60,180 nucleotides of DNA from a virus (taxonomy: Duplodnaviria > Caudoviricetes): IMG/VR virus record IMGVR_UViG_3300028840_002990, positions 1-60,180 of that record; one strand, given 5' to 3'. Below, in pieces: positions 13,036-60,180 of this stretch; position 1 is the first letter of the stretch, and every line of letters begins with the position of its first letter. Made by a program: the position numbers and the translations under genes. The notes under the pieces were generated by a model that saw nothing but the letters and a program-made list of their open reading frames with translations, had not been told where the DNA came from and did not search any database.

Positions 13036-14518
13036 ATTAGAACTACGGCGTAGGGCGCAAAGCGGGGAAATAAAAAAATCAAAATACAAAGAATTTCAGG
13101 AAAAATACCGAAATGATTTAGCGGGGTTTGCAAACGATTGTATATCGTGGCGCGAAAAAGAATATCCAACAGATTACCAGTTAGAAGGAATGCGGCGGCT
13201 AGTAAAGTACAAGCGTTTTTCATTGCGTGGCCCTCATGGTTTGGGGAAAACCATGTTTGCCGCAATTGCTGTTTTATGGTTTGCTCTAACTCGTGATGGG
13301 GAAGATTGGAAAATTCCTACACTTGCCTCGGCCTGGAGGCAGGTATCAAAATTTCTTTGGCCTGAAATAAGGAAATGGTCAAGGCGGTTGAAGTGGGGCG
13401 TTATTGGTCGCAACCCGTTCAACGAGAATAGAGAATTGCTTACACTGAGTTTGAAGTTGTCAACTGGTGAAGCCTTTGCAATGGCAAGCAATGATGAGTC
13501 TTTGATTGAGGGGGCACATGCGGACAATATACTATATTTGTTCGATGAATCGAAATCAATACCAGATGCAACATGGGATGCCGCAGAAGGGGCGATGTCT
13601 ACAACCGGGGAGTGCTATTGGTTGGCAGTATCAACGCCCGGTGAACCGATTGGGAGATTCTTTGACATTCATTCTAAAAAGGGCGGGTATGAGGATTGGG
13701 ATGCCCTTAAAGTCACACTAGAAATGGCAATCAAAGCGGGGCGCATAGATAGGGATTGGGCTAAAAATCGGGCAAGGCAATGGGGAAAAGATTCGGCGGT
13801 ATATATCAATCGAGTCAAGGGAGACTTTGCGGAAAGCGATGAGGATAGTGTTATCTCGTTGGCCTGGATTGAACGTTCAAACGAGCGATGGTTAGCAAGG
13901 CAAGAGGCAAACGATTTTGGGGATGTTACAGGCTTGGGGGTGGATGTAGGACGAGGCGGAGACCCGTCTGTTATCTGCCTACAATGTGAAGATGCAATAA
14001 AAGAATTCCGCAAAATACAGGTAAAAAATACAATGCACGTTACCGGATTAGTTATTGGTTTGCTGAAAAACCATCATAAATCAAAGGCAAGTATAGATGT
14101 GATCGGAATAGGGGCGGGAGTCGTTGACAGATGCAGGGAAGTTATAAACGAATTGAGAAACGTAATATTTCCAAACCCGAATGATAGGATTATTGCTTTC
14201 AATGCCGCAGAGAAAACAGACTTAAAAGATAGTTCAGGGGAATTGGGCTTTGTGGATTCTAGGTCGGCTGGATGGTGGAATCTTCGTGAGAAGTTGCAGA
14301 ATGATGAGGTTGATTTACCCCCGGAAGATGAATTGACCGGGGAGTTAGTTTCTCCTAAATGGGTGGTACAATCAGGAGGAAAAATAAAAGTTGAAAGCAA
14401 GAAAGATATAAAGAAACGCTTAGGCCGAAGTACCAACTATGCAGATACGGTCATTCAGGTTTACATGCCTCCCCCCGTTCAAAAAATGGCTGGTGCATTC
14501 GGTAGGAGAAAAAGGTAA
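13007..14518 (+). CDS. terL: Terminase large subunit
   Basis: Walker A GPHGLGKT, Walker B YLFDES, STP, nuclease GVDVGRGGD, RSTNYAD. Confidence 0.93.
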   Translation: MSLQTQVQAELELRRRAQSGEIKKSKYKEFQEKYRNDLAGFANDCISWREKEYPTDYQLEGMRRLVKYKRFSLRGPHGLGKTMFAAIAVLWFALTRDGEDWKIPTLASAWRQVSKFLWPEIRKWSRRLKWGVIGRNPFNENRELLTLSLKLSTGEAFAMASNDESLIEGAHADNILYLFDESKSIPDATWDAAEGAMSTTGECYWLAVSTPGEPIGRFFDIHSKKGGYEDWDALKVTLEMAIKAGRIDRDWAKNRARQWGKDSAVYINRVKGDFAESDEDSVISLAWIERSNERWLARQEANDFGDVTGLGVDVGRGGDPSVICLQCEDAIKEFRKIQVKNTMHVTGLVIGLLKNHHKSKASIDVIGIGAGVVDRCREVINELRNVIFPNPNDRIIAFNAAEKTDLKDSSGELGFVDSRSAGWWNLREKLQNDEVDLPPEDELTGELVSPKWVVQSGGKIKVESKKDIKKRLGRSTNYADTVIQVYMPPPVQKMAGAFGRRKR

Positions 14519-16758
14519 TGACTGAAAAACCCACTCCCCCCCGAAAAGGCACAAGAGCAGATTTGAAATTGAGATTGAATCGGGCAGAACAAACCATACA
14601 GTTTTTGGCGAATTCAACCCTGACCCGCAGAGCCGCTTATGCGGCCTCTCTAGGAAAACAGTTTGACGGTGATCGAGATTTATATGCCGTTTTTGGATAT
14701 AAAATATCCCCTGATTTTCAAGACTTCTTGCTTGCCTATGAGCGCGAAGGGCTCGCAGCTAGAGTCGCAGACGCAAAGCCAAATGCAACATGGAGCAAGC
14801 ACCCAATCCTTTATGTTGGTGGCGAGGCTCCAAGCGAAGAAAATCCGGGGGAACTGCAAAAGAAGTTTGACGAATTTGCTAACGAATACGACCTCTACGC
14901 AAAACTGAAAGAGCTTGATAGAGCCTGCGCGATTAGCCGCTTTGGTTTGATGTTCCTGGGTTTACCCGGCGACCCTAGAGAGCCAGTAGAAAACGTCAGA
15001 GAGGGAGATTTAGCCTTTATCACTGTACACGATGAGGGAGATGGGGAAATAGATGAGGGGAGCATTATTCAAGACACAGAAAACCCCCGCTTTGGCCTGC
15101 CTGAGTATTATTACATCATTGTTAGCGAAACCAATCAGGAAAAGAAACGAGTCCATCATTCCCGCGTAATCCATTACAAGCGAGGCAAGCAAAGAACTGG
15201 GTACGGGCGCGTGTACGGTGTTCCTGATCTGAAAAATATTTTCAACCGATTCTATGATCTTGAAAAAGTGGTAGGCGGTGGGAGCGAGGCATTTTGGTTG
15301 TTAGTGCGAAAAGGTCTTGCATTGATGGCAAGGGATGGAATGAATTTACCCTCAGAGGGAACAGACGCCTATGAAGTTTTAGAGGATGAGGTAGAGGAAT
15401 ACGAGCATCAATTATCCAGAATTATGAAATTGGTCGGCCTGGATATTCAGGAATTGGGAAGCGACCCGGTTTCTAGTCGAGATCAATTCGATGTGTTGAT
15501 TGAATATATTGCAGGGTCAGAGGAAATCCCGCAGAGACTTCTTTTAGGGTCTGAGCGGGGAGAACTGGCAAGTTCACAAGATCAAGCAAATTGGTTTGGT
15601 AACATTGAAGAAAGGCGAAATAACGAGGCCGAGCCTTATATTTTGCGGCCTGTTCTGGATAAGCTGGATGAATTGGGTCTTTTCGATTTACCAGATGAAT
15701 ATAAAGTTTTCTGGCCTCCATTGTTTACGCTGACAGAACCGGAGGAGGTAGAGGTTGCTAGTACGGTTGCACAGACTATTTATACAATCACAGGCGGTAT
15801 GCCTGAGTTGGCTATTCCGCTTGAGGAATTCATGAAACTGCTACCGGGTAAATGGTCATATGCGATGGATAAAGAGCAGATCAAAAAGATTGAGGAAGCA
15901 AAGCGGAAACCGGACGAAGCTAACCAAAAGGAAGATGAAAAAACAAAGGTTGACATTTCTGATTTGCTCTCCAAGTTGCCACAAGGGGAGGAAACAAAAC
16001 AGAATGCCCGGGCAATTATGAGCCGCCTTATCGAGGGGGTAAGCGGGTCAATCAAGGGCGATTTAGTGGAGAACTTCGGGACACTGGACGCTTACCAGAA
16101 TCCTATGGTTTGGCACAATGCAAATGGAACGGGCGAGTATGCAACCATGATTGCATTCATGATACCCGAAGTCATCCGCCAAGAGTTGAAAGCAAAATAT
16201 CCCTGGATACAAGATGACGTGTTAGACGAAATGCACATGACTCTTGTGTACCTGGGTGACATTCGCACATTATCAAGAGCTAGAATTTTCGAGGCGGTTG
16301 CTGAGTTTGCGAGTACGGTACAACCGATCAAAACCACTATGCAGGGACTCGCCCGGTTCGTTTCTGAAATGGAAAAAGACCCGATTGTCGCAACTTATGA
16401 CAGTCCACAAAATGAAATCGTTATGCTGCGGGAACAGTTAGCGGCTATACTTCGCACGATGGGAATCCCATACCATGATAATCATGGGTTTATCCCCCAT
16501 ACGACATTTGCATACATCCCTAAAAACGAGTCTATGCCTGATGACTCTTTTGAGCGGGTAGAGATCAATTTCAATATGGTTTCGGTGGTGATTGGTCAAG
16601 AGCAATATGATTTCGATTTAGGTAGATACCCTGACAATTTGCCTGAGATCATGCCTCCTCCCCCTCCACAAAAGGTACAACATCCAATAGAGGATTCAGG
16701 TCTTGACCCATACAATGAGCGGGGTAATTTTGACCCGGCAAATGAGGAGACTCATTGA
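14518..16758 (+). CDS. Portal protein (DUF1073-type) fused to a C-terminal 2H phosphoesterase
   Basis: Follows TerL; IPQRLLLGSERGELASSQD; HMTL and PHTTF 2H motifs. Confidence 0.85.
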   Translation: MTEKPTPPRKGTRADLKLRLNRAEQTIQFLANSTLTRRAAYAASLGKQFDGDRDLYAVFGYKISPDFQDFLLAYEREGLAARVADAKPNATWSKHPILYVGGEAPSEENPGELQKKFDEFANEYDLYAKLKELDRACAISRFGLMFLGLPGDPREPVENVREGDLAFITVHDEGDGEIDEGSIIQDTENPRFGLPEYYYIIVSETNQEKKRVHHSRVIHYKRGKQRTGYGRVYGVPDLKNIFNRFYDLEKVVGGGSEAFWLLVRKGLALMARDGMNLPSEGTDAYEVLEDEVEEYEHQLSRIMKLVGLDIQELGSDPVSSRDQFDVLIEYIAGSEEIPQRLLLGSERGELASSQDQANWFGNIEERRNNEAEPYILRPVLDKLDELGLFDLPDEYKVFWPPLFTLTEPEEVEVASTVAQTIYTITGGMPELAIPLEEFMKLLPGKWSYAMDKEQIKKIEEAKRKPDEANQKEDEKTKVDISDLLSKLPQGEETKQNARAIMSRLIEGVSGSIKGDLVENFGTLDAYQNPMVWHNANGTGEYATMIAFMIPEVIRQELKAKYPWIQDDVLDEMHMTLVYLGDIRTLSRARIFEAVAEFASTVQPIKTTMQGLARFVSEMEKDPIVATYDSPQNEIVMLREQLAAILRTMGIPYHDNHGFIPHTTFAYIPKNESMPDDSFERVEINFNMVSVVIGQEQYDFDLGRYPDNLPEIMPPPPPQKVQHPIEDSGLDPYNERGNFDPANEETH

Positions 16759-17210: not shown

Positions 17211-19820
17211 ATGACTTTCCCTACCCCCCTGCCTGAATTGCCCGTTCTCCTCCCTCCCCGTCCATACCGTGACGGGGGAGAGCCTTTCTTTGCTTTCACA
17301 GACAAAGAGACTCAGGAATTCTTGGAAGACAATTCAGACATCCAAAATAGTATTGACCTATGGAATAGAAAATCCCGCCTGGTTGGATACCTTGAGGCTG
17401 AGTCAATTGATGTTATTCAATTCCACTATGGCCCCGGCCCCCATCCCGGTACTGGTACGAGTCAAGATGTACATGGAGGGGATGGGGTAAAGGCTGAACC
17501 AAGAGGAAAGTATAAACATCCAATTCTAAAAGATGATGAACCTTTGAGTATTGCAAAAATTTGGGAGTCTTTTCAATGGCTTGAAAAGCAAAGACAGGAG
17601 GAGTTAGAAGCGGAATTGGAAAGGGAGCAAGGCATTGATAAAGAGGCAAGAGAGGAACGAATAGAGGAATTATCTGATGAATATGCAAAAGTTTTAGCTG
17701 ATGAATATGAATCATTTGCATTTGAGCATTGGAATTCTCTGACCGAAGAACAACAAGAGGCAATCAGGGAATATCAAAATGGGGAGTATGGTGATATAAA
17801 CGAATATCTTAGGGAGGGTGTCTATTTAGAAAATGAACATTATGTTGATCTTATTGCTGATTCTGCTACTCCATCCCCTCAAGATATAATGCTTTATAGG
17901 GGCATGGAAACCATGAGGTATGAAGATTTAGAGGCGGGGGACATTATTACAGATGACGGTTTTTTTTCATCCTCTGTTCACCAATCGGTTGCTTATTCTT
18001 TCATAAAGAATGCAGATAAAGGGGAACAAGAGGTTGCTTTTATTATTTTGGTAGATGAAGGGTTTCCGATTATCCCGGCTGATAGTAAAGACTATCCTAG
18101 TGAGGATGAAGTTATACTATTACCCGGTACAAGTTTTCATGTAGTGGATGTTTTCGAGGATGAATTTTTCTACAGTGACGATATTGATAAAGTTGTTTAT
18201 TTGAAAGCATTGACTCCAAGCGAAGCCCAAAACGGACTTGATAAGGGTTGGGAACTTTTACCAGAACCAAAACTAATACCAAAACCAGAACCAACCCCTG
18301 ATTTGCAACCTGCTTTGTTTTCAAAAGAACCAATCCCGATTCCAATTCTGGAAAGATGGGATGAAAATTTTTATTCCGAGGGCATAAGGGTTTACAGGCG
18401 GCAAAAGGTTTCCCAACATCATTATGGCCCCGGCCCCCATCCCGGTACTGGTACGAGTCAAGATGTGCATGGAGGGGATGGGGAGGAAAGAACTTACTCA
18501 GAAGTTGAAAAATATATGTATGAGGGTTTTGCAAAGAGGCATTGGGAAACCCTTACCCCTAGACAAAAACAGGTGATCAAAGCCTACGGTGATGATTACT
18601 ATGAATATTATAATGGGTATGCAAGAGGCCAAATTACAGCCACAGATTACAGTGAACAGGTTTCTGAAATAAATTCTGCTAGTATGCCTGCTCCATACGA
18701 TATGAAGGTGTACCGGGGAACTGAAAGTTTCCGATTCAACGATCTTGAAAGTGGTGATATATTTCATGATGCTGGATTTTTCTCTACTTCAATCCATAAA
18801 GATATTGCTGCAGATTTTGCCGATGTTCCATCAAAGGAAAAAGATCAAGTTGTTTTTGAAGTTCTTATTCCACATGCATTTCCTATTATCCCCTACGATA
18901 GCACAGACTTTGAACCAGAGGATGAAATCTTTTTTCCCGCTGGCACTTATTTTGAGGTCAAATCATCTGAGGATGACGTTTATTTTTCTTATGCTGGCAA
19001 TGTGAAACTTATTCAACTTGAGGCTATATACCCATCACAAGCAAGGGCAAAACAGAATGTAGAGAAAAGTAAAGTGCCTGAAAAATTGATTCCTGTTCCA
19101 ATTCTTGAGCGGTGGGCAACCGATGATTTTGATGGGGTTGGGATAACGATTATAAAGAAAGAAAAGAAAGAAAAGAAAATTTCCCAACATGCCCGGAAAC
19201 TTGTAGAGGTTTATTTCGATTTTCCAACAGGGGTTTATAGGTACATTGTTTCAGGCCGAAAAGTACCTGACCATCGTTTGCATTTAGGGAATGCCAGAGT
19301 CGCAAAGTCTCAACAAGGGGCAATGAAAGAGCTTACTCGGCAATTGGTAAACGGCGAGATCAATCAAGAGATTTGGTATAAGGAAATGCGACAAATGATG
19401 AAAGATCAATACCGGGCGGCTTGGCTTGCCAGTATTGGAGGCAGGGAGAACTATACCCGCTCCGAGATTTCAAAATTTGGTTGGGCTGTACGCCCTCAAT
19501 ACCGCTGGCTTGACAATTTTCTTGCTGAGTTGCAATCAGGAAAACAACCCTTGAATGCTTTTGCTATCATGCGATCTGGCATGTACGCGAGGGCGGGGAA
19601 TGCGATCTACCAGAACAATAGACTTAGGATAGCAATCGAAGCAGGGATGAAAGAGGCGAGGAGAATTCTAGGGGTTACGGAACATCACTGTCATGATACG
19701 TTGACCAAACCTGGGTGTATTGAATTAGCGGCTGAGGGATGGATTCCTATAATGCAAGCTGTACCAATCGGGGATGCAAGTTGTTATTCAATGTGTTTGT
19801 GTAGATGGGAGTTTAGATAA
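17211..19820 (+). CDS. Minor head (MuF-like) protein with two VIP2-type ADP-ribosyltransferase domains
   Basis: Two R-S-ExE sets (LYRG/FFSSS/SEDEV and VYRG/FFSTS/PEDEI); C-terminal HC..C..C...C.C; lies after the portal. Confidence 0.8.
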   Translation: MTFPTPLPELPVLLPPRPYRDGGEPFFAFTDKETQEFLEDNSDIQNSIDLWNRKSRLVGYLEAESIDVIQFHYGPGPHPGTGTSQDVHGGDGVKAEPRGKYKHPILKDDEPLSIAKIWESFQWLEKQRQEELEAELEREQGIDKEAREERIEELSDEYAKVLADEYESFAFEHWNSLTEEQQEAIREYQNGEYGDINEYLREGVYLENEHYVDLIADSATPSPQDIMLYRGMETMRYEDLEAGDIITDDGFFSSSVHQSVAYSFIKNADKGEQEVAFIILVDEGFPIIPADSKDYPSEDEVILLPGTSFHVVDVFEDEFFYSDDIDKVVYLKALTPSEAQNGLDKGWELLPEPKLIPKPEPTPDLQPALFSKEPIPIPILERWDENFYSEGIRVYRRQKVSQHHYGPGPHPGTGTSQDVHGGDGEERTYSEVEKYMYEGFAKRHWETLTPRQKQVIKAYGDDYYEYYNGYARGQITATDYSEQVSEINSASMPAPYDMKVYRGTESFRFNDLESGDIFHDAGFFSTSIHKDIAADFADVPSKEKDQVVFEVLIPHAFPIIPYDSTDFEPEDEIFFPAGTYFEVKSSEDDVYFSYAGNVKLIQLEAIYPSQARAKQNVEKSKVPEKLIPVPILERWATDDFDGVGITIIKKEKKEKKISQHARKLVEVYFDFPTGVYRYIVSGRKVPDHRLHLGNARVAKSQQGAMKELTRQLVNGEINQEIWYKEMRQMMKDQYRAAWLASIGGRENYTRSEISKFGWAVRPQYRWLDNFLAELQSGKQPLNAFAIMRSGMYARAGNAIYQNNRLRIAIEAGMKEARRILGVTEHHCHDTLTKPGCIELAAEGWIPIMQAVPIGDASCYSMCLCRWEFR
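17424..18483 (+). repeat. Two 64 bp near-identical copies encoding HYGPGPHPGTGTSQDVHGGDG
   Basis: 17424-17487 and 18420-18483; third diverged copy at 23895-23951. Confidence 0.9.
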
Positions 19821-20094: not shown

Positions 20095-20123
20095 TTGACA
20101 CATTTACAAATGTACATTACAAT
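20095..20123 (+). promoter_or_regulatory. Sigma70-type promoter driving cassette array A
   Basis: TTGACA-17-TACAAT; overlaps the palindrome AATGTACATT (20109-20118). Confidence 0.8.
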
Positions 20124-20153: not shown

Positions 20154-20360
20154 ATGGGTGATTTCAGACCAAAATTAAATTCTCATGAAGATATTTTCTT
20201 AGCAATTCAAGAGGAATTGAATAAGAATGCTGTTACCTCATTGAATCTTACAACTATTGTAAAGATTTGTGGAGAACGGGCTTTTTTATCTCTTTTCCCT
20301 GACAGGAAAAATGAGTTGTTGGGTTTACAGCGTCAACGATATGAGAAAATTGATTTTTAA
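20154..20360 (+). CDS. Small hypothetical protein ending at attI-like site A
   Basis: TAGGAG RBS; stop codon overlaps the AATGTACATT palindrome. Confidence 0.7.
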   Translation: MGDFRPKLNSHEDIFLAIQEELNKNAVTSLNLTTIVKICGERAFLSLFPDRKNELLGLQRQRYEKIDF

Positions 20361-20389
20361 TGTACATTCCGCTCAAACACTAGTTAGCC
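20359..20389 (+). mobile_element. attI-like site A
   Basis: AATGTACATTCCGCTCAAACACTAG|TTAGCC; 25 of 27 bases through GTT match 58249-58275; heads the array. Confidence 0.72.
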
Positions 20390-20410
20390 GCCACTTGAAG
20401 GAATAGTCAC

Positions 20411-20635
20411 ATGGCATATAAAAAAGGTAATCACTGTAACAATAATTGCGCCCACTTTTTCGGCGAAGATGTAACTATCTATAATCCGTATCATGGCGGC
20501 AATCCTGGCTCAACAGATTATGAGCAATATCAAATGTATTGTTGCGCCGAAGTTGCCCATGGTGAGCGTATCTATAAAGTCCGTTATGCTTGCCCTATCT
20601 ATCAGGCAGCTAACAAAGCATGGAGCGGACGGTAG
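20411..20635 (+). CDS. Cys-rich hypothetical protein, cassette A1 cargo
   Basis: AAGGA RBS; reads into the attC (ANKAWSGR). Confidence 0.75.
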   Translation: MAYKKGNHCNNNCAHFFGEDVTIYNPYHGGNPGSTDYEQYQMYCCAEVAHGERIYKVRYACPIYQAANKAWSGR

Positions 20636-20693
20636 AAATGTTACCTGAAATCCTGACAGCTTTATCGTCCGCCGCTCATGCAGGCCGTTAGGC
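20608..20693 (+). mobile_element. attC site A1 (86 bp)
   Basis: AGCTAAC..GCATGGAGCGG / CCGCTCATGC (one extrahelical base)..GTTAGGC. Confidence 0.9.
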
Positions 20694-20708
20694 GCTATCT
20701 TGCAAAGG

Positions 20709-21032
20709 ATGAAAATGATTACAGAAAAAGAACTCGATGCAATCGCTTGGCGTGCTGGTCGTGGTTGTCATTTTGAAAAAACGTTTGTTGGCCCAAATGG
20801 GTACACACAGAAAGTGTGCGAAGAAGATGTGCCTGCGCTTATCAGAGAATTGCGAATGGTGAGAGAATTTGTCAAGGCAAATATTGAGCTTGCAAATCTC
20901 AACACTACTTTGATTGAGTTTGTGTCAGAAGTCAATTACTCTCCATACAATGATAGTGATTGTCTTTCGCTTTTAGAAAGTTTGCGTTCACGAGCTGCGA
21001 CAATCCTGAGAGAGATTGAAGCGCCTAAGTGA
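20709..21032 (+). CDS. Hypothetical protein, cassette A2 cargo
   Basis: Begins after GTTAGGCGCT and ends over the remnant AGCGCCTAAG (21020-21029). Confidence 0.75.
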   Translation: MKMITEKELDAIAWRAGRGCHFEKTFVGPNGYTQKVCEEDVPALIRELRMVREFVKANIELANLNTTLIEFVSEVNYSPYNDSDCLSLLESLRSRAATILREIEAPK

Positions 21033-21125: not shown

Positions 21126-21956
21126 ATGAATTTATTGCTGAAACAAAACGTTCAATGGAAACGTTTACAGAAAACATTTGAAAAAATCTTATATGCCCTT
21201 GTTCTAATCGGTTTGTTTTTTGTATCCATAATGCAAAGGGAAAATAATTCAGTTGATCTTCGGATACTACTAGAGTCGGGCAATGCCGCAATCAACGGAA
21301 TAAACCCATACAGGGAATTACCGTTCTACTCCCCCGCTTGGTTTCTTCTCCTGCTTTCCCCTTTGTCATTACTTCCCTTTGATTTTATTCATGCCCTATG
21401 GACAATTTGCACCCTCGCGGCGTGGGTTTTCATCCTTCATAAGTTGGAAATATCAGTAATTGATTCCGCTCTTTTTATGCTCAACCCTTTTATGTGGTTT
21501 GGGATGTCACTAGGAAATTATGATTGGCTTGTGCTGTTGGGTTTGTTTCTTCCCATGAGCCGGGGAATATGGCTGTTGCTTCTCAAGCCGCAAATTGTTT
21601 TTGGAGCTTTCCTTTTATGGTTGAGATATGTAAAACTCAAGTATGCAATCAAGGTTTTCTTTTTCCCCGCTCTAATTATTTTGATTTGTTTGGGGGTTGG
21701 GTTGTACCGTTCTCCCGATCTAAAAGAAATGATATGGAATCAATCATTAGGGCTATGGGGAATCCCTGTTGGGTTGATCATGATGTATTTTGCTTTCAAG
21801 AGGAATGATAGTATTTTGGCTCTCGGAGCATCCCCGTTTCTTTCTCCCTATGTTGGTATCCAATCCTGGGCAATCCCCTTCTTGCTCCTGACAAGAGATA
21901 GGCGGTTGTTGATCATCGGATTGATTTTGTCGTGGGCATTTATTTTTGTGAGGTGA
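21126..21956 (+). CDS. GT-C fold (GT87/DUF2029-like) polytopic membrane glycosyltransferase
   Basis: G.NPY..FYSPAW..LL.PL..LP, GNYD, LLKPQ; many TM helices. Confidence 0.7.
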   Translation: MNLLLKQNVQWKRLQKTFEKILYALVLIGLFFVSIMQRENNSVDLRILLESGNAAINGINPYRELPFYSPAWFLLLLSPLSLLPFDFIHALWTICTLAAWVFILHKLEISVIDSALFMLNPFMWFGMSLGNYDWLVLLGLFLPMSRGIWLLLLKPQIVFGAFLLWLRYVKLKYAIKVFFFPALIILICLGVGLYRSPDLKEMIWNQSLGLWGIPVGLIMMYFAFKRNDSILALGASPFLSPYVGIQSWAIPFLLLTRDRRLLIIGLILSWAFIFVR

Positions 21957-55120: not shown

Positions 55121-56053
55121 ATGAGTATAGGAGTTATGGAAGCGGTTTTGAAAGCAGATTTTCCAAAGTATATTGAATGGGAAAAAAACGGAAAACCACG
55201 TAGAACAAAATCAACAACTGCAAAAATTCTTTTGCTGTGCTATGCCGATAAGTCAAACGAAGAGGGAGAGGGTACTTATCCCGGTTACAATCGCCTGAAA
55301 ATAGAAACGGGGAATTTGAGTGATCAAGGGCTTGCGGATACGATTGAGGCTCTAAAACAAAACACTTTTTTAGTTTATGAGGGTAGAAGCAAATACAATA
55401 CAAATTCCTATAAGGTCAATATTGAAAAACTCAAATCAATGTGTCATCCTGTGTTTCTCAAGCCACTTGAGAAACGAGACTCAAGCCACTTGAGAAACGA
55501 GACTCAAGCCACTAGAGAGAATCCGTTAGTTAAACCGTCAGTTAAACCAAATGGTGCTAAAGCACAAAAAGAAAAATCATATAAACCTGATTTAGAATCT
55601 GCAAAAGAACGTATTGAAAAACAAAGAGCAAGCAAGGGAGATATTTTAGACTTCTTTACTCAGACCCAACCAGAAATAAAAATCATCACTGAAATGCGTG
55701 AGCGGGTTAGTGCCGCTGTTGGATTGAACCTTACTAGAGAGTGGGATAAGACCCGCTCTGATTGGAACGGATACGAAAAGAAATTGATAAAACGCGAAGT
55801 GGAAACAGGCGAAACGATTGAGCAATTTATGGAGTGGTACAACTCCGATGAATTTAGGAGAGACAACCAACGGATTTGGTTGAAACCTGATGTGATTGAA
55901 AAGTTTTGGCCTAGTGCGTTTTCAGAACAAGAACCAGATCGCCCGGAATACAAAAAGGTAAAGTATAACCCTGAGGATGACAAAAAATATGCCCCGCCTC
56001 CCGAAACCAAACCCCGAATATTACGAAATCAAGTTGCAAAAAATCAAGAATAA
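55121..56053 (+). CDS. Replication initiator (wHTH, lambda O-like)
   Basis: AK.LLL.YAD..N.EG..YPG..RL..ETG; internal iterons; upstream of DnaB. Confidence 0.78.
   Translation: MSIGVMEAVLKADFPKYIEWEKNGKPRRTKSTTAKILLLCYADKSNEEGEGTYPGYNRLKIETGNLSDQGLADTIEALKQNTFLVYEGRSKYNTNSYKVNIEKLKSMCHPVFLKPLEKRDSSHLRNETQATRENPLVKPSVKPNGAKAQKEKSYKPDLESAKERIEKQRASKGDILDFFTQTQPEIKIITEMRERVSAAVGLNLTREWDKTRSDWNGYEKKLIKREVETGETIEQFMEWYNSDEFRRDNQRIWLKPDVIEKFWPSAFSEQEPDRPEYKKVKYNPEDDKKYAPPPETKPRILRNQVAKNQE
55454..55548. repeat. Iterons, putative replication origin
   Basis: CTCAAGCCACTTGAGAAACGAGA x2.7 (23 bp, palindromic) then CCGT(T/C)AGTTAAA x2. Confidence 0.78.
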
Positions 56054-57590: not shown

Positions 57591-57619
57591 TTGACAAGCA
57601 ACGCAAGCCATGATAAGAT
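57591..57619 (+). promoter_or_regulatory. Sigma70-type promoter upstream of cassette array B
   Basis: TTGACA-17-TAAGAT; upstream TAATGAAAC(G/A)TTCTTGACAA shared with 5161-5180. Confidence 0.7.
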
Positions 57620-57636
57620 GGATGCAGATAGGAGAA

Positions 57637-58266
57637 ATGAAGGTGAAAACTGAAACAAAACCAGTTGTATATCAAGAGAAATGTCAAAGTTTGACATTTT
57701 GCTCCCCCGAATTTTTGGCTGAGATCAAGGAACACGGCGATACAATTGAATTCAATATCTTTGAGATCGCCCAAAAAGTACGGGATTACATGATTTCTAA
57801 TGCAACCATCCCGGTTGAAACCGTGTACTATGAAATTGCTACCTATGCCCTGAGAGGCCGCAAGCCTCGGACGGTCAGAGATTGGGTTGAGGGGATTGCG
57901 GGATTTCAGGATGAATCAATCACAGGATGGACAGAGGCAGGGCTTACAATGTCTCATTTCAAATCTGCCCGAAAACTGTACCGGGATGATTTCGTAGAAT
58001 CCCCCTCCGAGGCTTTGGATGCCTGCATAAACCAGCGCAAAGAATCAGATCGCCCCTTGACCGTTTCACAAATGGAAAACCTTTTCCTGCCTGTTGAAAC
58101 CGGGCAAGAGGAGTTATTCAAATTTGCTACGTGGTTGAGAAGTATTTTAGACAGGCAACCCCCGGCCTTTTGGCCTGAGAGTAAACGAAAAGAATTTTCA
58201 AGCTGGCTTGATTATGGTAAAAAGTTCATGCCGGAACTAAAATCAAAAAATGTACATTCCGCATAA
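57637..58266 (+). CDS. Hypothetical protein ending inside attI-like site B
   Basis: TAGGAG RBS; last codons NVHSA come from the site. Confidence 0.75.
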   Translation: MKVKTETKPVVYQEKCQSLTFCSPEFLAEIKEHGDTIEFNIFEIAQKVRDYMISNATIPVETVYYEIATYALRGRKPRTVRDWVEGIAGFQDESITGWTEAGLTMSHFKSARKLYRDDFVESPSEALDACINQRKESDRPLTVSQMENLFLPVETGQEELFKFATWLRSILDRQPPAFWPESKRKEFSSWLDYGKKFMPELKSKNVHSA

Positions 58267-58279
58267 ACACTAGTTGGGC
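58249..58279 (+). mobile_element. attI-like site B
   Basis: AATGTACATTCCGCATAAACACTAG|TTGGGC; near-identical to 20359-20385. Confidence 0.72.
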
Positions 58280-58307
58280 GGACTCGTCCAAACGAAAGCG
58301 AGTATAA

Positions 58308-58532
58308 ATGATAACAACTCAAGATAAATGTGTATCAGTAGATGATGCGCTAAAAAAGCTAAATTTTATGAAGGCAAGCGGACGGCGTATGTTTTTTTTG
58401 AGTGAACTCAATCCAGACGCTGCCCAACAACGCGTGCAGCCGACTCGTTGCACTGTGCCGAATTGTCACGCTGGCATGGTTCCAGATGGCACATCAGCGC
58501 GTAAAACATGTCCAGTGTGCAACGGCGGCTAA
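58308..58532 (+). CDS. Cassette B1 cargo; second half encoded by the attC
   Basis: 74 aa; CTVPNC..CPVC lies within the hairpin. Confidence 0.6.
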   Translation: MITTQDKCVSVDDALKKLNFMKASGRRMFFLSELNPDAAQQRVQPTRCTVPNCHAGMVPDGTSARKTCPVCNGG

Positions 58533-58548
58533 CGCAAGTCCGTTAGCT
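58422..58548 (+). mobile_element. attC site B1 (127 bp)
   Basis: GCCCAAC..GCGTGCAGCCG / CGGCTAACGC..GTTAGCT; inner CGTTGCAC/GTGCAACG. Confidence 0.88.
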
Positions 58549-58577
58549 GGCTTCTTTGCCAGAGAAAGAAGGAAACA

Positions 58578-58778
58578 ATGTCAGAAGAAATTGGTTTTGA
58601 AGTCTCGCATGAATCCGCAGTCAAAATTGCTTTGTCAATGTATCTTGGCGAGAAGTGTAAGTATTGCGGCAAAGAGTATAAAACTCTTGAAGATTTGAGT
58701 GATACGGTATGGGCTGGCTATCACGAACATGGTCGCCTTGCCTGTCAATCTTGCTGGAATAAAAATAACGCCAGCTAA
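58578..58778 (+). CDS. Small Zn-finger-like protein, cassette B2 cargo
   Basis: CKYC..CQSC; stop codon inside R''. Confidence 0.8.
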   Translation: MSEEIGFEVSHESAVKIALSMYLGEKCKYCGKEYKTLEDLSDTVWAGYHEHGRLACQSCWNKNNAS

Positions 58779-58858
58779 CAAAGCATGGAGCGGACGGTAG
58801 AAATGTTACCTGAAATCCTGACAGCTTTATCGTCCGCCGCTCATGCAGGCCGTTAGCC
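58773..58858 (+). mobile_element. attC site B2 (86 bp)
   Basis: 58772-58856 is identical to 20607-20691. Confidence 0.9.
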
Positions 58859-58883
58859 TGCTTCGTGCGGGCAAGGAGAAAAC

Positions 58884-59162
58884 ATGAACACACGTGATAA
58901 ATGTAAAAATTGTGGCGGTGATAACAGCATCCATCACTACCAAACAAATCAATGTCCTGTTGGTGGGTGCGAATCCGCAATTGGCAGGAAACAGGAATAC
59001 ATGACAACCACCTTTGAGCCTGATAACGAAAGTGAAGTCTCAGAGTTACGTAATTCTGTAAAGGAATTACTTGCCCGCGTTGAAGAACTCGAAGCGCAGG
59101 TTTCACGCCTGCAATCTGGTGCTGAGTTGGAAGAGTCTGTGCGTATCTTTGGCGCAGGCTAA
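58884..59162 (+). CDS. Cys/His plus coiled-coil protein, cassette B3 cargo
   Basis: AAGGAG RBS; CKNC..HH..CP; stop codon inside R''. Confidence 0.8.
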   Translation: MNTRDKCKNCGGDNSIHHYQTNQCPVGGCESAIGRKQEYMTTTFEPDNESEVSELRNSVKELLARVEELEAQVSRLQSGAELEESVRIFGAG

Positions 59163-59246
59163 CACAGCGTGCAGGCGACAAGGGCGGGCGGTGGTTCTTT
59201 ACTGCCAAAGTTATACCGCCCTTGCGCCTAACGCAAACCGTTAGAA
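59157..59246 (+). mobile_element. attC site B3 (90 bp)
   Basis: GGCTAAC..GCGTGCAGGCG / CGCCTAACGC..GTTAGAA; inner CAAGGGCGG/CCGCCCTTG. Confidence 0.9.
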
Positions 59247-59255
59247 GGCTAAAAC

Positions 59256-60056
59256 ATGTTCACTTTGCACAACAAGGATGTCCGAGAAATAATCGAGTCT
59301 CTGAAACACGGCGATATTGATGTCGTGTTTACAGACCCGCCCTATGGCATAGAAGGCTCATCTGGCAAAATAAATCTTGCGCGTGGCAAAGGTAATTATT
59401 CCAGCGAGTTTGAAGATACGCCAGAGTACATCGAAAAAGTTGTTGTGCCTATTGTCAAGAAACTTATTTCAGTTTGTGGGTGTGTGGTTCTTACTCCGGG
59501 TAACAAAAACTTTTCTTTGTATCCCCAGCCTGATTCGTTTGGTTGCTTTTATCAGCCTGCCGCAGTTGGCTTGCAAGTGTTCGGAAATCTTGACGCGCAA
59601 CCAATTTTTTATTATGGCAAAAATGCGTCAAAGAAAAACATGGGCGTTCCATGTTCCTACCAACTCACCGAGAAAGCCGAAAAGAACGGGCATCCATGCG
59701 TAAAGCCTATAAAGGCATGGAAGAAAATGCTTTCAAATATTAGCCTTGTAGGGCAAACAGTATTTGATCCATTCATGGGTTCAGGCACAACAGGCGTTGC
59801 CGCATTGCAACTTGATAGAAATTTTATAGGCTGTGAAATCTCACCTGAGTATTATTCCATCGCTGAGAAGCGCATACAATCGGCGGCTTTACAGCCATCG
59901 CTCTTTACGCCTTCTAACAACCGCTTGCACCCTGACGTGGGGGATTCACCCGCGCAGCAAGCATTATTCACCCCAGAAGCGGATACCGCCGAAGGGAAGT
60001 TACCTGCACCCGCCCCCCCGCAGGTAAAGCGAACCGTTAGGCCGCCCCTTGCCTGA
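59256..60056 (+). CDS. DNA N6-A/N4-C methyltransferase (beta class), cassette B4 cargo
   Basis: TDPPY..HPCVKP..FDPFMGSGTTG..FIGCE; C-terminus reads through the attC. Confidence 0.92.
   Translation: MFTLHNKDVREIIESLKHGDIDVVFTDPPYGIEGSSGKINLARGKGNYSSEFEDTPEYIEKVVVPIVKKLISVCGCVVLTPGNKNFSLYPQPDSFGCFYQPAAVGLQVFGNLDAQPIFYYGKNASKKNMGVPCSYQLTEKAEKNGHPCVKPIKAWKKMLSNISLVGQTVFDPFMGSGTTGVAALQLDRNFIGCEISPEYYSIAEKRIQSAALQPSLFTPSNNRLHPDVGDSPAQQALFTPEADTAEGKLPAPAPPQVKRTVRPPLA
59912..60042 (+). mobile_element. attC site B4 (131 bp)
   Basis: TTCTAAC..CGCTTGCACC / GGTAAAGCG..GTTAGGC; inner GGGGG/CCCCC. Confidence 0.85.
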
Positions 60057-60180
60057 GAATGGGGCAGAAAGGAAACCATGAACGCAAGTATCAAGGTGAT
60101 GAATAGTTATGATTATTGCCATTTTGAAGTGGCATTATCAGCCGAAGATGTCTCTCTTGAAGATGTTGACAATCTTCGCA
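60037..60180. repeat. Terminal direct repeat, right copy
   Basis: Identical to 1-144. Confidence 0.95.

Follow-up and report, generated by a model that had tools for sequence, protein, structure and literature searches.

Two cassette arrays in a phage genome

The window analysed here is the whole stretch of 60,180 nucleotides (nt) of IMG/VR virus record IMGVR_UViG_3300028840_002990 (Duplodnaviria; Caudoviricetes). It carries two arrays of integron-like gene cassettes, each headed by an attI-like site: array B, from 58249 across the origin to about 989, and array A, at 20359–21029. Positions 60037–60180 repeat positions 1–144 (a 144-bp end overlap), and the genome is 60,036 bp long. The record classes its ends as direct terminal repeats, and its CheckV completeness is 100%.

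The gene content includes a terminase, a portal, a MuF-like head protein, a protease, an endolysin, a replication initiator and a DnaB-type helicase, on the + strand nearly throughout. Phage genes flank both arrays on each side. Cultured phages are distant, the best match of the large terminase subunit (TerL) being 45%, and the matches of the array region to cultured phages were confined to methylase genes (70–77%).

Array B had been described in an original prediction made from the letters alone; array A and the small conserved gene before its attI-like site were not part of it. The features of array B, with open reading frames (ORFs) and the scores of the attC sites in a covariance model (CM, described below), are as follows.

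57591–57619, + strand: promoter-like site (TTGACA, 17 nt, TAAGAT, with TG); 10 of 12 consensus positions, a consensus match only
57610–58266, + strand: resident ORF, 218 aa, no family; stop codon inside the attI-like site; no Pfam match
58249–58275, + strand: attI-like site; crossover between G58273 and T58274
58274–58542, + strand: cassette B1; ORF 58308–58532 (74 aa, Cys-rich); attC 58422–58548 (127 nt), CM 53.6 bits
58543–58852, + strand: cassette B2; ORF 58578–58778 (66 aa, zinc-ribbon-like); attC 58773–58858 (86 nt), CM 44.4 bits
58853–59240, + strand: cassette B3; ORF 58884–59162 (92 aa, coiled-coil tail); attC 59157–59246 (90 nt), CM 69.8 bits
59241–60036, + strand: cassette B4; N6/N4 DNA methyltransferase ORF 59256–60056; attC 59912–60042 (131 nt), CM 59.6 bits
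1–421 (starts at 60037 = 1), + strand: cassette B5; ORF 42–383 (113 aa); attC reduced to the R''-L'' half, 384–421
431–767, + strand: remnant of cassette B6; ORF 431–658 (75 aa); long atypical attC 552–772
768–989, + strand: last unit, B7; ORF 780–989 (69 aa), without recognisable attC and with no CM match downstream

The methyltransferase of B4 matched PF01555 (E 6.5e-24). With four full attC sites within 1.7 kb and no integron integrase nearby, array B falls within the definition of a CALIN, that is, at least two clustered attC sites without a nearby integron integrase (Cury et al. 2016, PMC4889954, where Chloroflexi are among the integron-bearing phyla). The half-site of B5 (387–421) matched the model with its left half only (15.3 bits, E 0.016). 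The B6 site reached 34.5 bits with its halves joined across 221 nt, and 10.2 and 8.2 bits with the halves taken separately.

The features of array A are as follows.

20095–20123, + strand: promoter-like site (TTGACA, 17 nt, TACAAT) with ATGTACAT in the spacer; 11 of 12 positions, a consensus match only
20154–20360, + strand: small resident gene, 68 aa, ending at attI; member of a large uncharacterised family that precedes such attI sites
20359–20385, + strand: attI-like site; crossover between G20383 and T20384
20384–20687, + strand: cassette A1; ORF 20411–20635 (74 aa, Cys-rich); attC 20608–20693, CM 45.1 bits
20688–21029, + strand: cassette A2; ORF 20700–21032 (110 aa); attC reduced to an R'' remnant, 21020–21029

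By itself, array A counts a single attC, since its second site is only a remnant. The start of A2, TTAGGCGCT (20688–20696), is the reverse complement of 21020–21028 at 9 of 9 positions by eye, followed by a G in place of the C. The promoter-like sites lie 250–650 nt upstream of the two arrays and are consensus matches only; in the array B region their count was not above that in shuffled sequences.

The 85-nt attC core of B2 (58772–58856) is identical to that of A1 (20607–20691), though the genes in front differ. That unrelated genes are followed by one and the same site at both loci speaks for a recent event.

attC sites and cassette junctions

The covariance model was built only from 67 sites of the host attC type, from Anaerolineales chromosomal integrons, of which 22 came from four genomes with the integron integrase, IntI. 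A search of the genome with this model gave five full sites of 44–70 bits, all on the + strand (four at 58422–60042 and one at 20608–20693). The E values of the four array B sites ranged from 3e-10 to 4e-17. The sixth match scored 15 bits, and the other matches had E values of at least 0.29, apart from the remnants at 387–772.

The attC sites of B2 and A1, which are identical, do not fit the two-box pattern used to search for such sites in other genomes, so their scores did not arise by construction.

Structure was assessed in an alignment of 47 sites from this phage and related phage loci. The paired positions were complementary in 93.5% of the cells, vs 67.4% in shuffles and 33–43% with slid partners. 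Compensatory changes on both sides were found in 15 of the 17 pairs; none of 500 shuffles did as well. The sites are imperfect palindromes, and their AAC (R'') and GTT (R') ends were present in all five full sites of this phage.

The consensus structure contained a 1-nt bulge and a 2-against-1 bulge on the R''/L'' arm, five pairs apart. When the B3 attC was folded singly, its bottom strand likewise formed bulges on the R''/L'' arm. Asymmetric bulges on this arm, at canonical positions, are a hallmark of attC sites.

The cassette boundaries were examined by a genome-wide test: GTT plus 8 bases, for which the reverse complement of the 9 bases after the G, plus C, had to lie at most 1.6 kb downstream. 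Five positions in the entire genome passed. Four of them were the array boundaries 58542, 58852, 59240 and 60036, and the fifth was a 36-nt hairpin at 55453.

The cassette start matched its own R'' box at 9 of 9 bases in B2, B3, B4 and B5 (the B5 start against 384–393), at 8 of 9 in A1 and at 7 of 9 in B1. This complementarity of 9 nt is expected if a circular cassette was inserted by a crossover between the G and TT. In their sequence, the junctions bear the mark that a crossover of the IntI type leaves at G|TT.

The attI-like docking site

The attI-like site of array B (58249–58275) and that of array A are 88% identical over 32 nt (20359–20390), and the identity ends after the GTT. The exact 26-base pattern of this site was found in three other IMG/VR contigs and 11 metagenome loci; among the latter are a duplicate of a viral record and a pair of overlapping loci. 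It is followed by attC sites at each of the 14 (E ≤ 0.001). After G|TT, at least nine different sequences occur among them; in other phage contigs, the cassettes behind this attI differ. The exact pattern was found in none of the stretches of 185,579 species genomes.

Two arrangements stood out among the other loci. In L009 the attI-like site sits within a longer array. In L149 and L003 (record G003, 27.8 kb, terminal repeats), a small complete viral record holds two attI-headed arrays and an Xer-like recombinase.

Host attI sites beside intI were examined at five loci. They lie 130–180 nt upstream of intI, which is divergent, and their last 13–15 bases before G|TT resemble the phage site. In variants of the phage attI from other contigs, 14 of 15 of these bases are as in the commonest host form.

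The original prediction had proposed an attI-like site followed by single-gene units at 58274–60036, continuing across the origin, each closed by an attC site. The gene-cassette architecture was borne out by the CM matches, the pairing, the compensatory changes and the junction scars, and the attC-model check that it had suggested returned five sites with a model made from host sites. Its unit coordinates and boundaries agreed with the CM sites and the boundary test. The attI-like site fits a putative attI in position, conservation and likeness of its junction half to host attI.

The octamer ATGTACAT opens the attI-like site and recurs at 20110–20117, in the promoter spacer of array A; the window has six copies vs 0.8 expected. 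An operator role for this palindrome in the array A promoter was considered and found unsupported, TGTACA being there in just 2 of the 15 upstream regions listed.

A small gene in front of attI

Homologues of the 68-aa protein encoded before array A (20154–20360), with 31–37% identity, lie directly before attI at six of the pattern loci and at eight IMG/VR loci. At the latter, attC sites were present downstream in all eight and numbered two or more in seven. The gene is absent from array B. It was found in none of five host genomes, in a search in which this phage, as the positive control, was detected.

The attI DNA is nearly invariant, while the small protein has strongly diverged. This suggested that the site itself is under selection.

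The family comprises 522 clusters in a large protein database, none with a Pfam family, and the protein gave no match to Pfam, to the sequences of solved structures or in Foldseek. An AlphaFold2 model (pLDDT 78) has an extended N-terminus and two helices, and the nearest named protein-atlas cluster is a ribbon-helix-helix family (0.90). That the protein is of the ribbon-helix-helix type is a guess.

The resident ORF in front of array B (57610–58266) had no relative among the viral contigs searched. The same was true of the membrane protein at 21126–21956.

Integron integrase in this phage and its relatives

A six-frame search of the genome with PF00589, TIGR02249 and PF00239 yielded no candidate at E ≤ 1, whether for an IntI, another tyrosine recombinase or a serine recombinase. 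A tblastn search with three recombinases of relatives, including the IntI of G016 (see below), found nothing significant. The absence of a tyrosine recombinase from this phage, noted in the original prediction, therefore stood in the profile hidden Markov model search that it had called for, which was negative for both IntI and PF00589.

IntI was found in none of nine related viral records that carry the attI module. Four of the six near-complete records with this module (G002, G003, G009 and G011) contain an Xer-like recombinase, as a called gene or an open frame of about 273–342 aa. By their coordinates these genes lie about 3–5.5 kb from the attI module and are not adjacent to attI. No tyrosine recombinase was found in this genome or in G012, both 100% complete.

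Among 18 relatives identified by TerL, mostly fragments, three have attC sites of the same type. One of these relatives, G016 (IMG/VR, 61.2 kb, 100% complete), has a TerL 70% identical to that of this phage and a syntenic structural module. It encodes an integron integrase (L185:1072–2064; 376 bits vs a cut-off of 265), immediately followed by an array of the same attC type. The gene is co-oriented with the cassettes and adjoins the first of them at its stop codon. Its place is between the replication genes and the terminase. A co-oriented intI is also known from integrons of Treponema. The G016 IntI is 47–53% identical to the IntIs of Anaerolineales.

The array A module is missing from G016, in which the flanking homologues are separated by 234 nt vs 1,032 nt here. 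G016 has neither the small resident gene nor an array at the head-gene locus. G016, a distant relative, is the one genome with which the array loci were compared between relatives.

G015 (L189), also found through TerL, carries another methyltransferase cassette, closed by an attC of this type, as well as repeats that resemble a second, different attC-like family. IntI-like genes (47–49% identity) occur in viral loci L192–L195, and no sites of this attC type were found there.

The attC type in Anaerolineales and a cassette in other contexts

The two-box pattern was abstracted from the attC sites, with about three chance matches estimated for the species-genome collection. At least 120 stretches matched, with up to nine sites per 8 kb. 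Among the 80 listed of these, 65 were labelled Anaerolineales, Anaerolineae or other Chloroflexota, and five were unlabelled. Four of five genomes with the pattern encode an IntI above the TIGR02249 cut-off. The attC type of the phage cassettes is that of Anaerolineales chromosomal integrons, and by this likeness the host is probably a member of Anaerolineales (Chloroflexota).

Small shares of the sequence occurred in 18 further runs, of which X4 and X11 were examined. Run X4, a bioreactor metagenome from another study, holds a copy of the B4 cassette with 34 differences in 690 nt (95% identity). The start of this copy is at the same G (59240), and the end of a host-type attI stands in front of it. 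The occurrence of one cassette elsewhere at a host-type attI is a direct sign of cassette mobility, though only an indirect one of recombination by an integron integrase. In X11, a wastewater run, relatives of the B4 cassette were found behind other contexts. A blastn comparison of both arrays with the collected loci matched only the 3' end of the methyltransferase gene (73%), to host locus L019.

Runs X1 and X2 hold the phage and are possibly its source samples. The unitig depth of the arrays in these runs was 21–30 and that of the backbone 25, and the 85-nt attC had about double depth, as two copies predict. These depths argue against a chimera. A joint 58275>58772 was no alternative arrangement but simply the array A contig.

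Interpretation

We interpreted these results as a phage with two attI-headed, integrase-less cassette arrays (CALINs) for which IntI is supplied in trans, and we assign this reading a probability of about 0.7. That the cassettes are of the IntI type and were inserted at an attI we hold with high confidence. The supply of IntI in trans is plausible, judged from the attC type and the junction half of attI, both as in intI-bearing Anaerolineales integrons, and from the intI in G016. Of the inferences drawn, the best supported is that the platform is probably still in use, with an IntI coming from the host or from a phage that bears intI.

In such a system, circular cassettes would have been taken up through attC x attI recombination, with new ones entering at attI and older ones decaying distally. 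The source of the enzyme would be a co-infecting phage with intI or the chromosomal integron of the host, probably a member of Anaerolineales. Phage promoters would read through the cassettes, which would supply accessory genes, such as a DNA methyltransferase protecting the phage from restriction.

A broader proposal is offered tentatively, at somewhat less than even odds. Anaerolineales phages may own a dedicated integrase-less platform, made up of a promoter, a small conserved gene (possibly ribbon-helix-helix), a phage-specific attI of 27 bp and a short array. It would occur up to twice per genome and be gained or lost as a unit. It would borrow IntI, from a host integron or from an intI-bearing phage, to swap accessory genes with the host cassette pool.

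Several observations weigh against the supply of IntI in trans to arrays still in use. No recombination event was seen in this phage, and the contigs of X1 and X2 show only the present arrangement, although contigs cannot reveal rare variants. The distal units of both arrays are decayed, so that these, at any rate, have lost their mobility. Array B has five R' boxes, of which three (GTTAGCT, GTTAGCC and GTTAGAA) deviate from strict GTTRRRY. The left half of the phage attI (ATGTACAT...) is unlike the host attI, which has TTATACAGC-like repeats, and this makes binding by a host IntI uncertain. The likeness to host sites is partly by construction where it concerns the two boxes, the sites for the host model having been picked with a pattern abstracted from the phage sites; the 47-site alignment (A3) was itself fitted to the covariance model. 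The host assignment draws on the likeness of attC, attI and IntI and on nothing else, and 10 of the 80 listed stretches were labelled as other phyla. The labels of metagenome-assembled genomes can be wrong.

The main rival to IntI in trans is an inert relic: the arrays, either a legacy of an ancestor phage with intI or a copy of part of a host integron, would no longer recombine and would be kept as ordinary accessory genes. The lack of an integrase in the genome, the decay or loss of the distal attC sites in both arrays and the single arrangement in the runs that hold the phage would all be expected of such a relic, and G016 has its intI at a comparable place, between the replication genes and the terminase. 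On the other hand, five attC sites are intact with their structure conserved, and the identical 85-nt attC at the two loci speaks for a recent event. The 27-bp attI has remained nearly unchanged while the small gene diverged to 31–37% protein identity, and the cassettes that follow it vary among contigs. We therefore regard an inert relic as unlikely, at perhaps a little better than the odds of a die throw. A weaker rival keeps the arrays mobile by means of a different enzyme, the small Xer-like tyrosine recombinase of related small phages acting in trans, perhaps helped by the small resident protein. Such a recombinase is indeed encoded some 3–5.5 kb away in G002, G003, G009 and G011, four of the six near-complete attI-module records. 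This phage and G012 are complete and have no tyrosine recombinase at all, the Xer-like proteins score below TIGR02249 and are not adjacent to attI, the sites are of the type found in host genomes with a true IntI, and the fold and DNA binding of the supposed helper are only conjectural. This made an Xer-like enzyme very improbable.

It is scarcely credible that the arrays are unrelated to integrons, i.e. intergenic hairpins such as terminators or phage repeats, or an assembly chimera with host DNA. The site at 58526–58549 also fits a terminator-like pattern, and the folding z-scores of single sites were modest (−0.3 to −2.4). Against this stand the CM scores, the covariation, the junction scars and the X4 copy at an attI; a chimera is further opposed by the phage genes on both sides of the arrays and by the equal unitig depth. 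We therefore retained attI-headed arrays served by an IntI in trans as the preferred reading.

Relation to known systems

The original prediction regarded a complete unit of promoter, attI and array in a phage as at best poorly described. This overstated the novelty, since phage CALINs, and a prophage CALIN with attI, have been published. Qi et al. 2023 (PMC9892861) reported integron parts in 21 of 10,705 phage genomes, including 17 CALINs, some of them in virulent phages, and found that IntI1 recombined five of the six phage attC sites tested.

The phage CALINs of that paper (Tetrasphaera phage TJE1, Pseudoalteromonas phage PH101 and others) share with the present arrays the co-oriented cassettes bounded by attC, the lack of intI and the N6_N4_Mtase cassettes. 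Unlike them, as they are described there, the arrays here number two per genome, and a conserved attI-like site stands at the head of each. This attI also recurs in many contigs of uncultured phages, preceded by a small conserved gene, and the attC type is that of Anaerolineales.

The same paper describes a Shewanella prophage CALIN with its own attI. It resembles the present arrays in being a phage-borne CALIN with an attI of host type at its start. According to its description, however, the prophage is inactive, an intact intI lies in the same element, and the attI is one nucleotide off that of Shewanella oneidensis MR-1. In the present phage there is no intI, the attI shares only its junction half with the host, and the exact site was in no species genome.

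The sedentary chromosomal integrons of Anaerolineales and other Chloroflexota have in common with the phage arrays the attC family, the G|TT junction logic and a similar junction half of attI. In the host, a divergent intI adjoins the array, and the attC sites are very uniform, most of them about 121–122 nt long. The phage arrays, in contrast, are short, have attC sites of 86–131 nt, lack intI and are embedded in phage operons.

The complete integron of G016 shares the syntenic backbone and the attC type, and its first cassette starts with the same 10 bases as B1. The present phage differs from it in lacking intI and in having the small resident gene and the array at the head-gene locus.

The literature searches made here yielded no report of a phage-specific attI that recurs with a conserved gene ahead of it, or of two arrays per phage genome. 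Nor was anything found on integrase-less attI-headed arrays in Chloroflexota phages or on a link to Anaerolineales. The string 'Chloroflex' is absent from the main text of PMC9892861; its supplementary list of 21 phages could bear on the novelty.

Other features of the genome

Position 1 (= 60037) is the first T after the G|TT crossover of the attC at 59912–60042, and the 144-bp overlap thus starts at a cassette boundary. This may be a coincidence, an assembly effect or a genuine genome end.

Just past the decayed end of array B lies an ORF of 218 aa (1415–2071). Its C-terminal half shares 36% identity with a gene carried on a cassette in L009, and 33% with one at host array locus L123. These similarities suggest that it may be a former cassette that is now fixed in the phage.

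The ORF at 17211–19820 (869 aa) is a head protein with a MuF-like C-terminal part and two Alt-like ADP-ribosyltransferase modules. A 64-nt repeat occurs at 17424 and 18420 (97% identical). In the portal protein (14518–16758, 746 aa), residues 564–709 match PHROG families annotated as RNA ligase or head maturation protease.

Within the replication-initiator gene (55121–56053), a 23-nt unit occurs in two exact tandem copies (55457–55502), possibly an origin with iterons. A repeated leader family (AACCATCC...TAGGAGA; 2107, 5214, 8570 and 8827) and a promoter-like family (TTGACAAATAA...; 5166 and 53676) precede several operons.

Implications

Integrons have been treated as bacterial devices, and attC clusters in phages have been reported recently, as rare finds in cultured phages. 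The present case suggests a more organised arrangement, with a recurrent docking site under selection and cassettes of host type. The methyltransferase cassette, likely a counter to restriction, was seen in both phage and host-type contexts.

For a phage group without cultured relatives, the arrays also provide a clue to the host, Anaerolineales. If the platform works with a borrowed integrase, it would explain one origin of integrase-less attC clusters. It would give phages a cheap way to sample host cassettes, and vice versa, and would offer a minimal attI of 27 bp for experiments. Were the tentative proposal of a dedicated phage platform true, the integron would be a gene market common to a bacterial lineage and its viruses.

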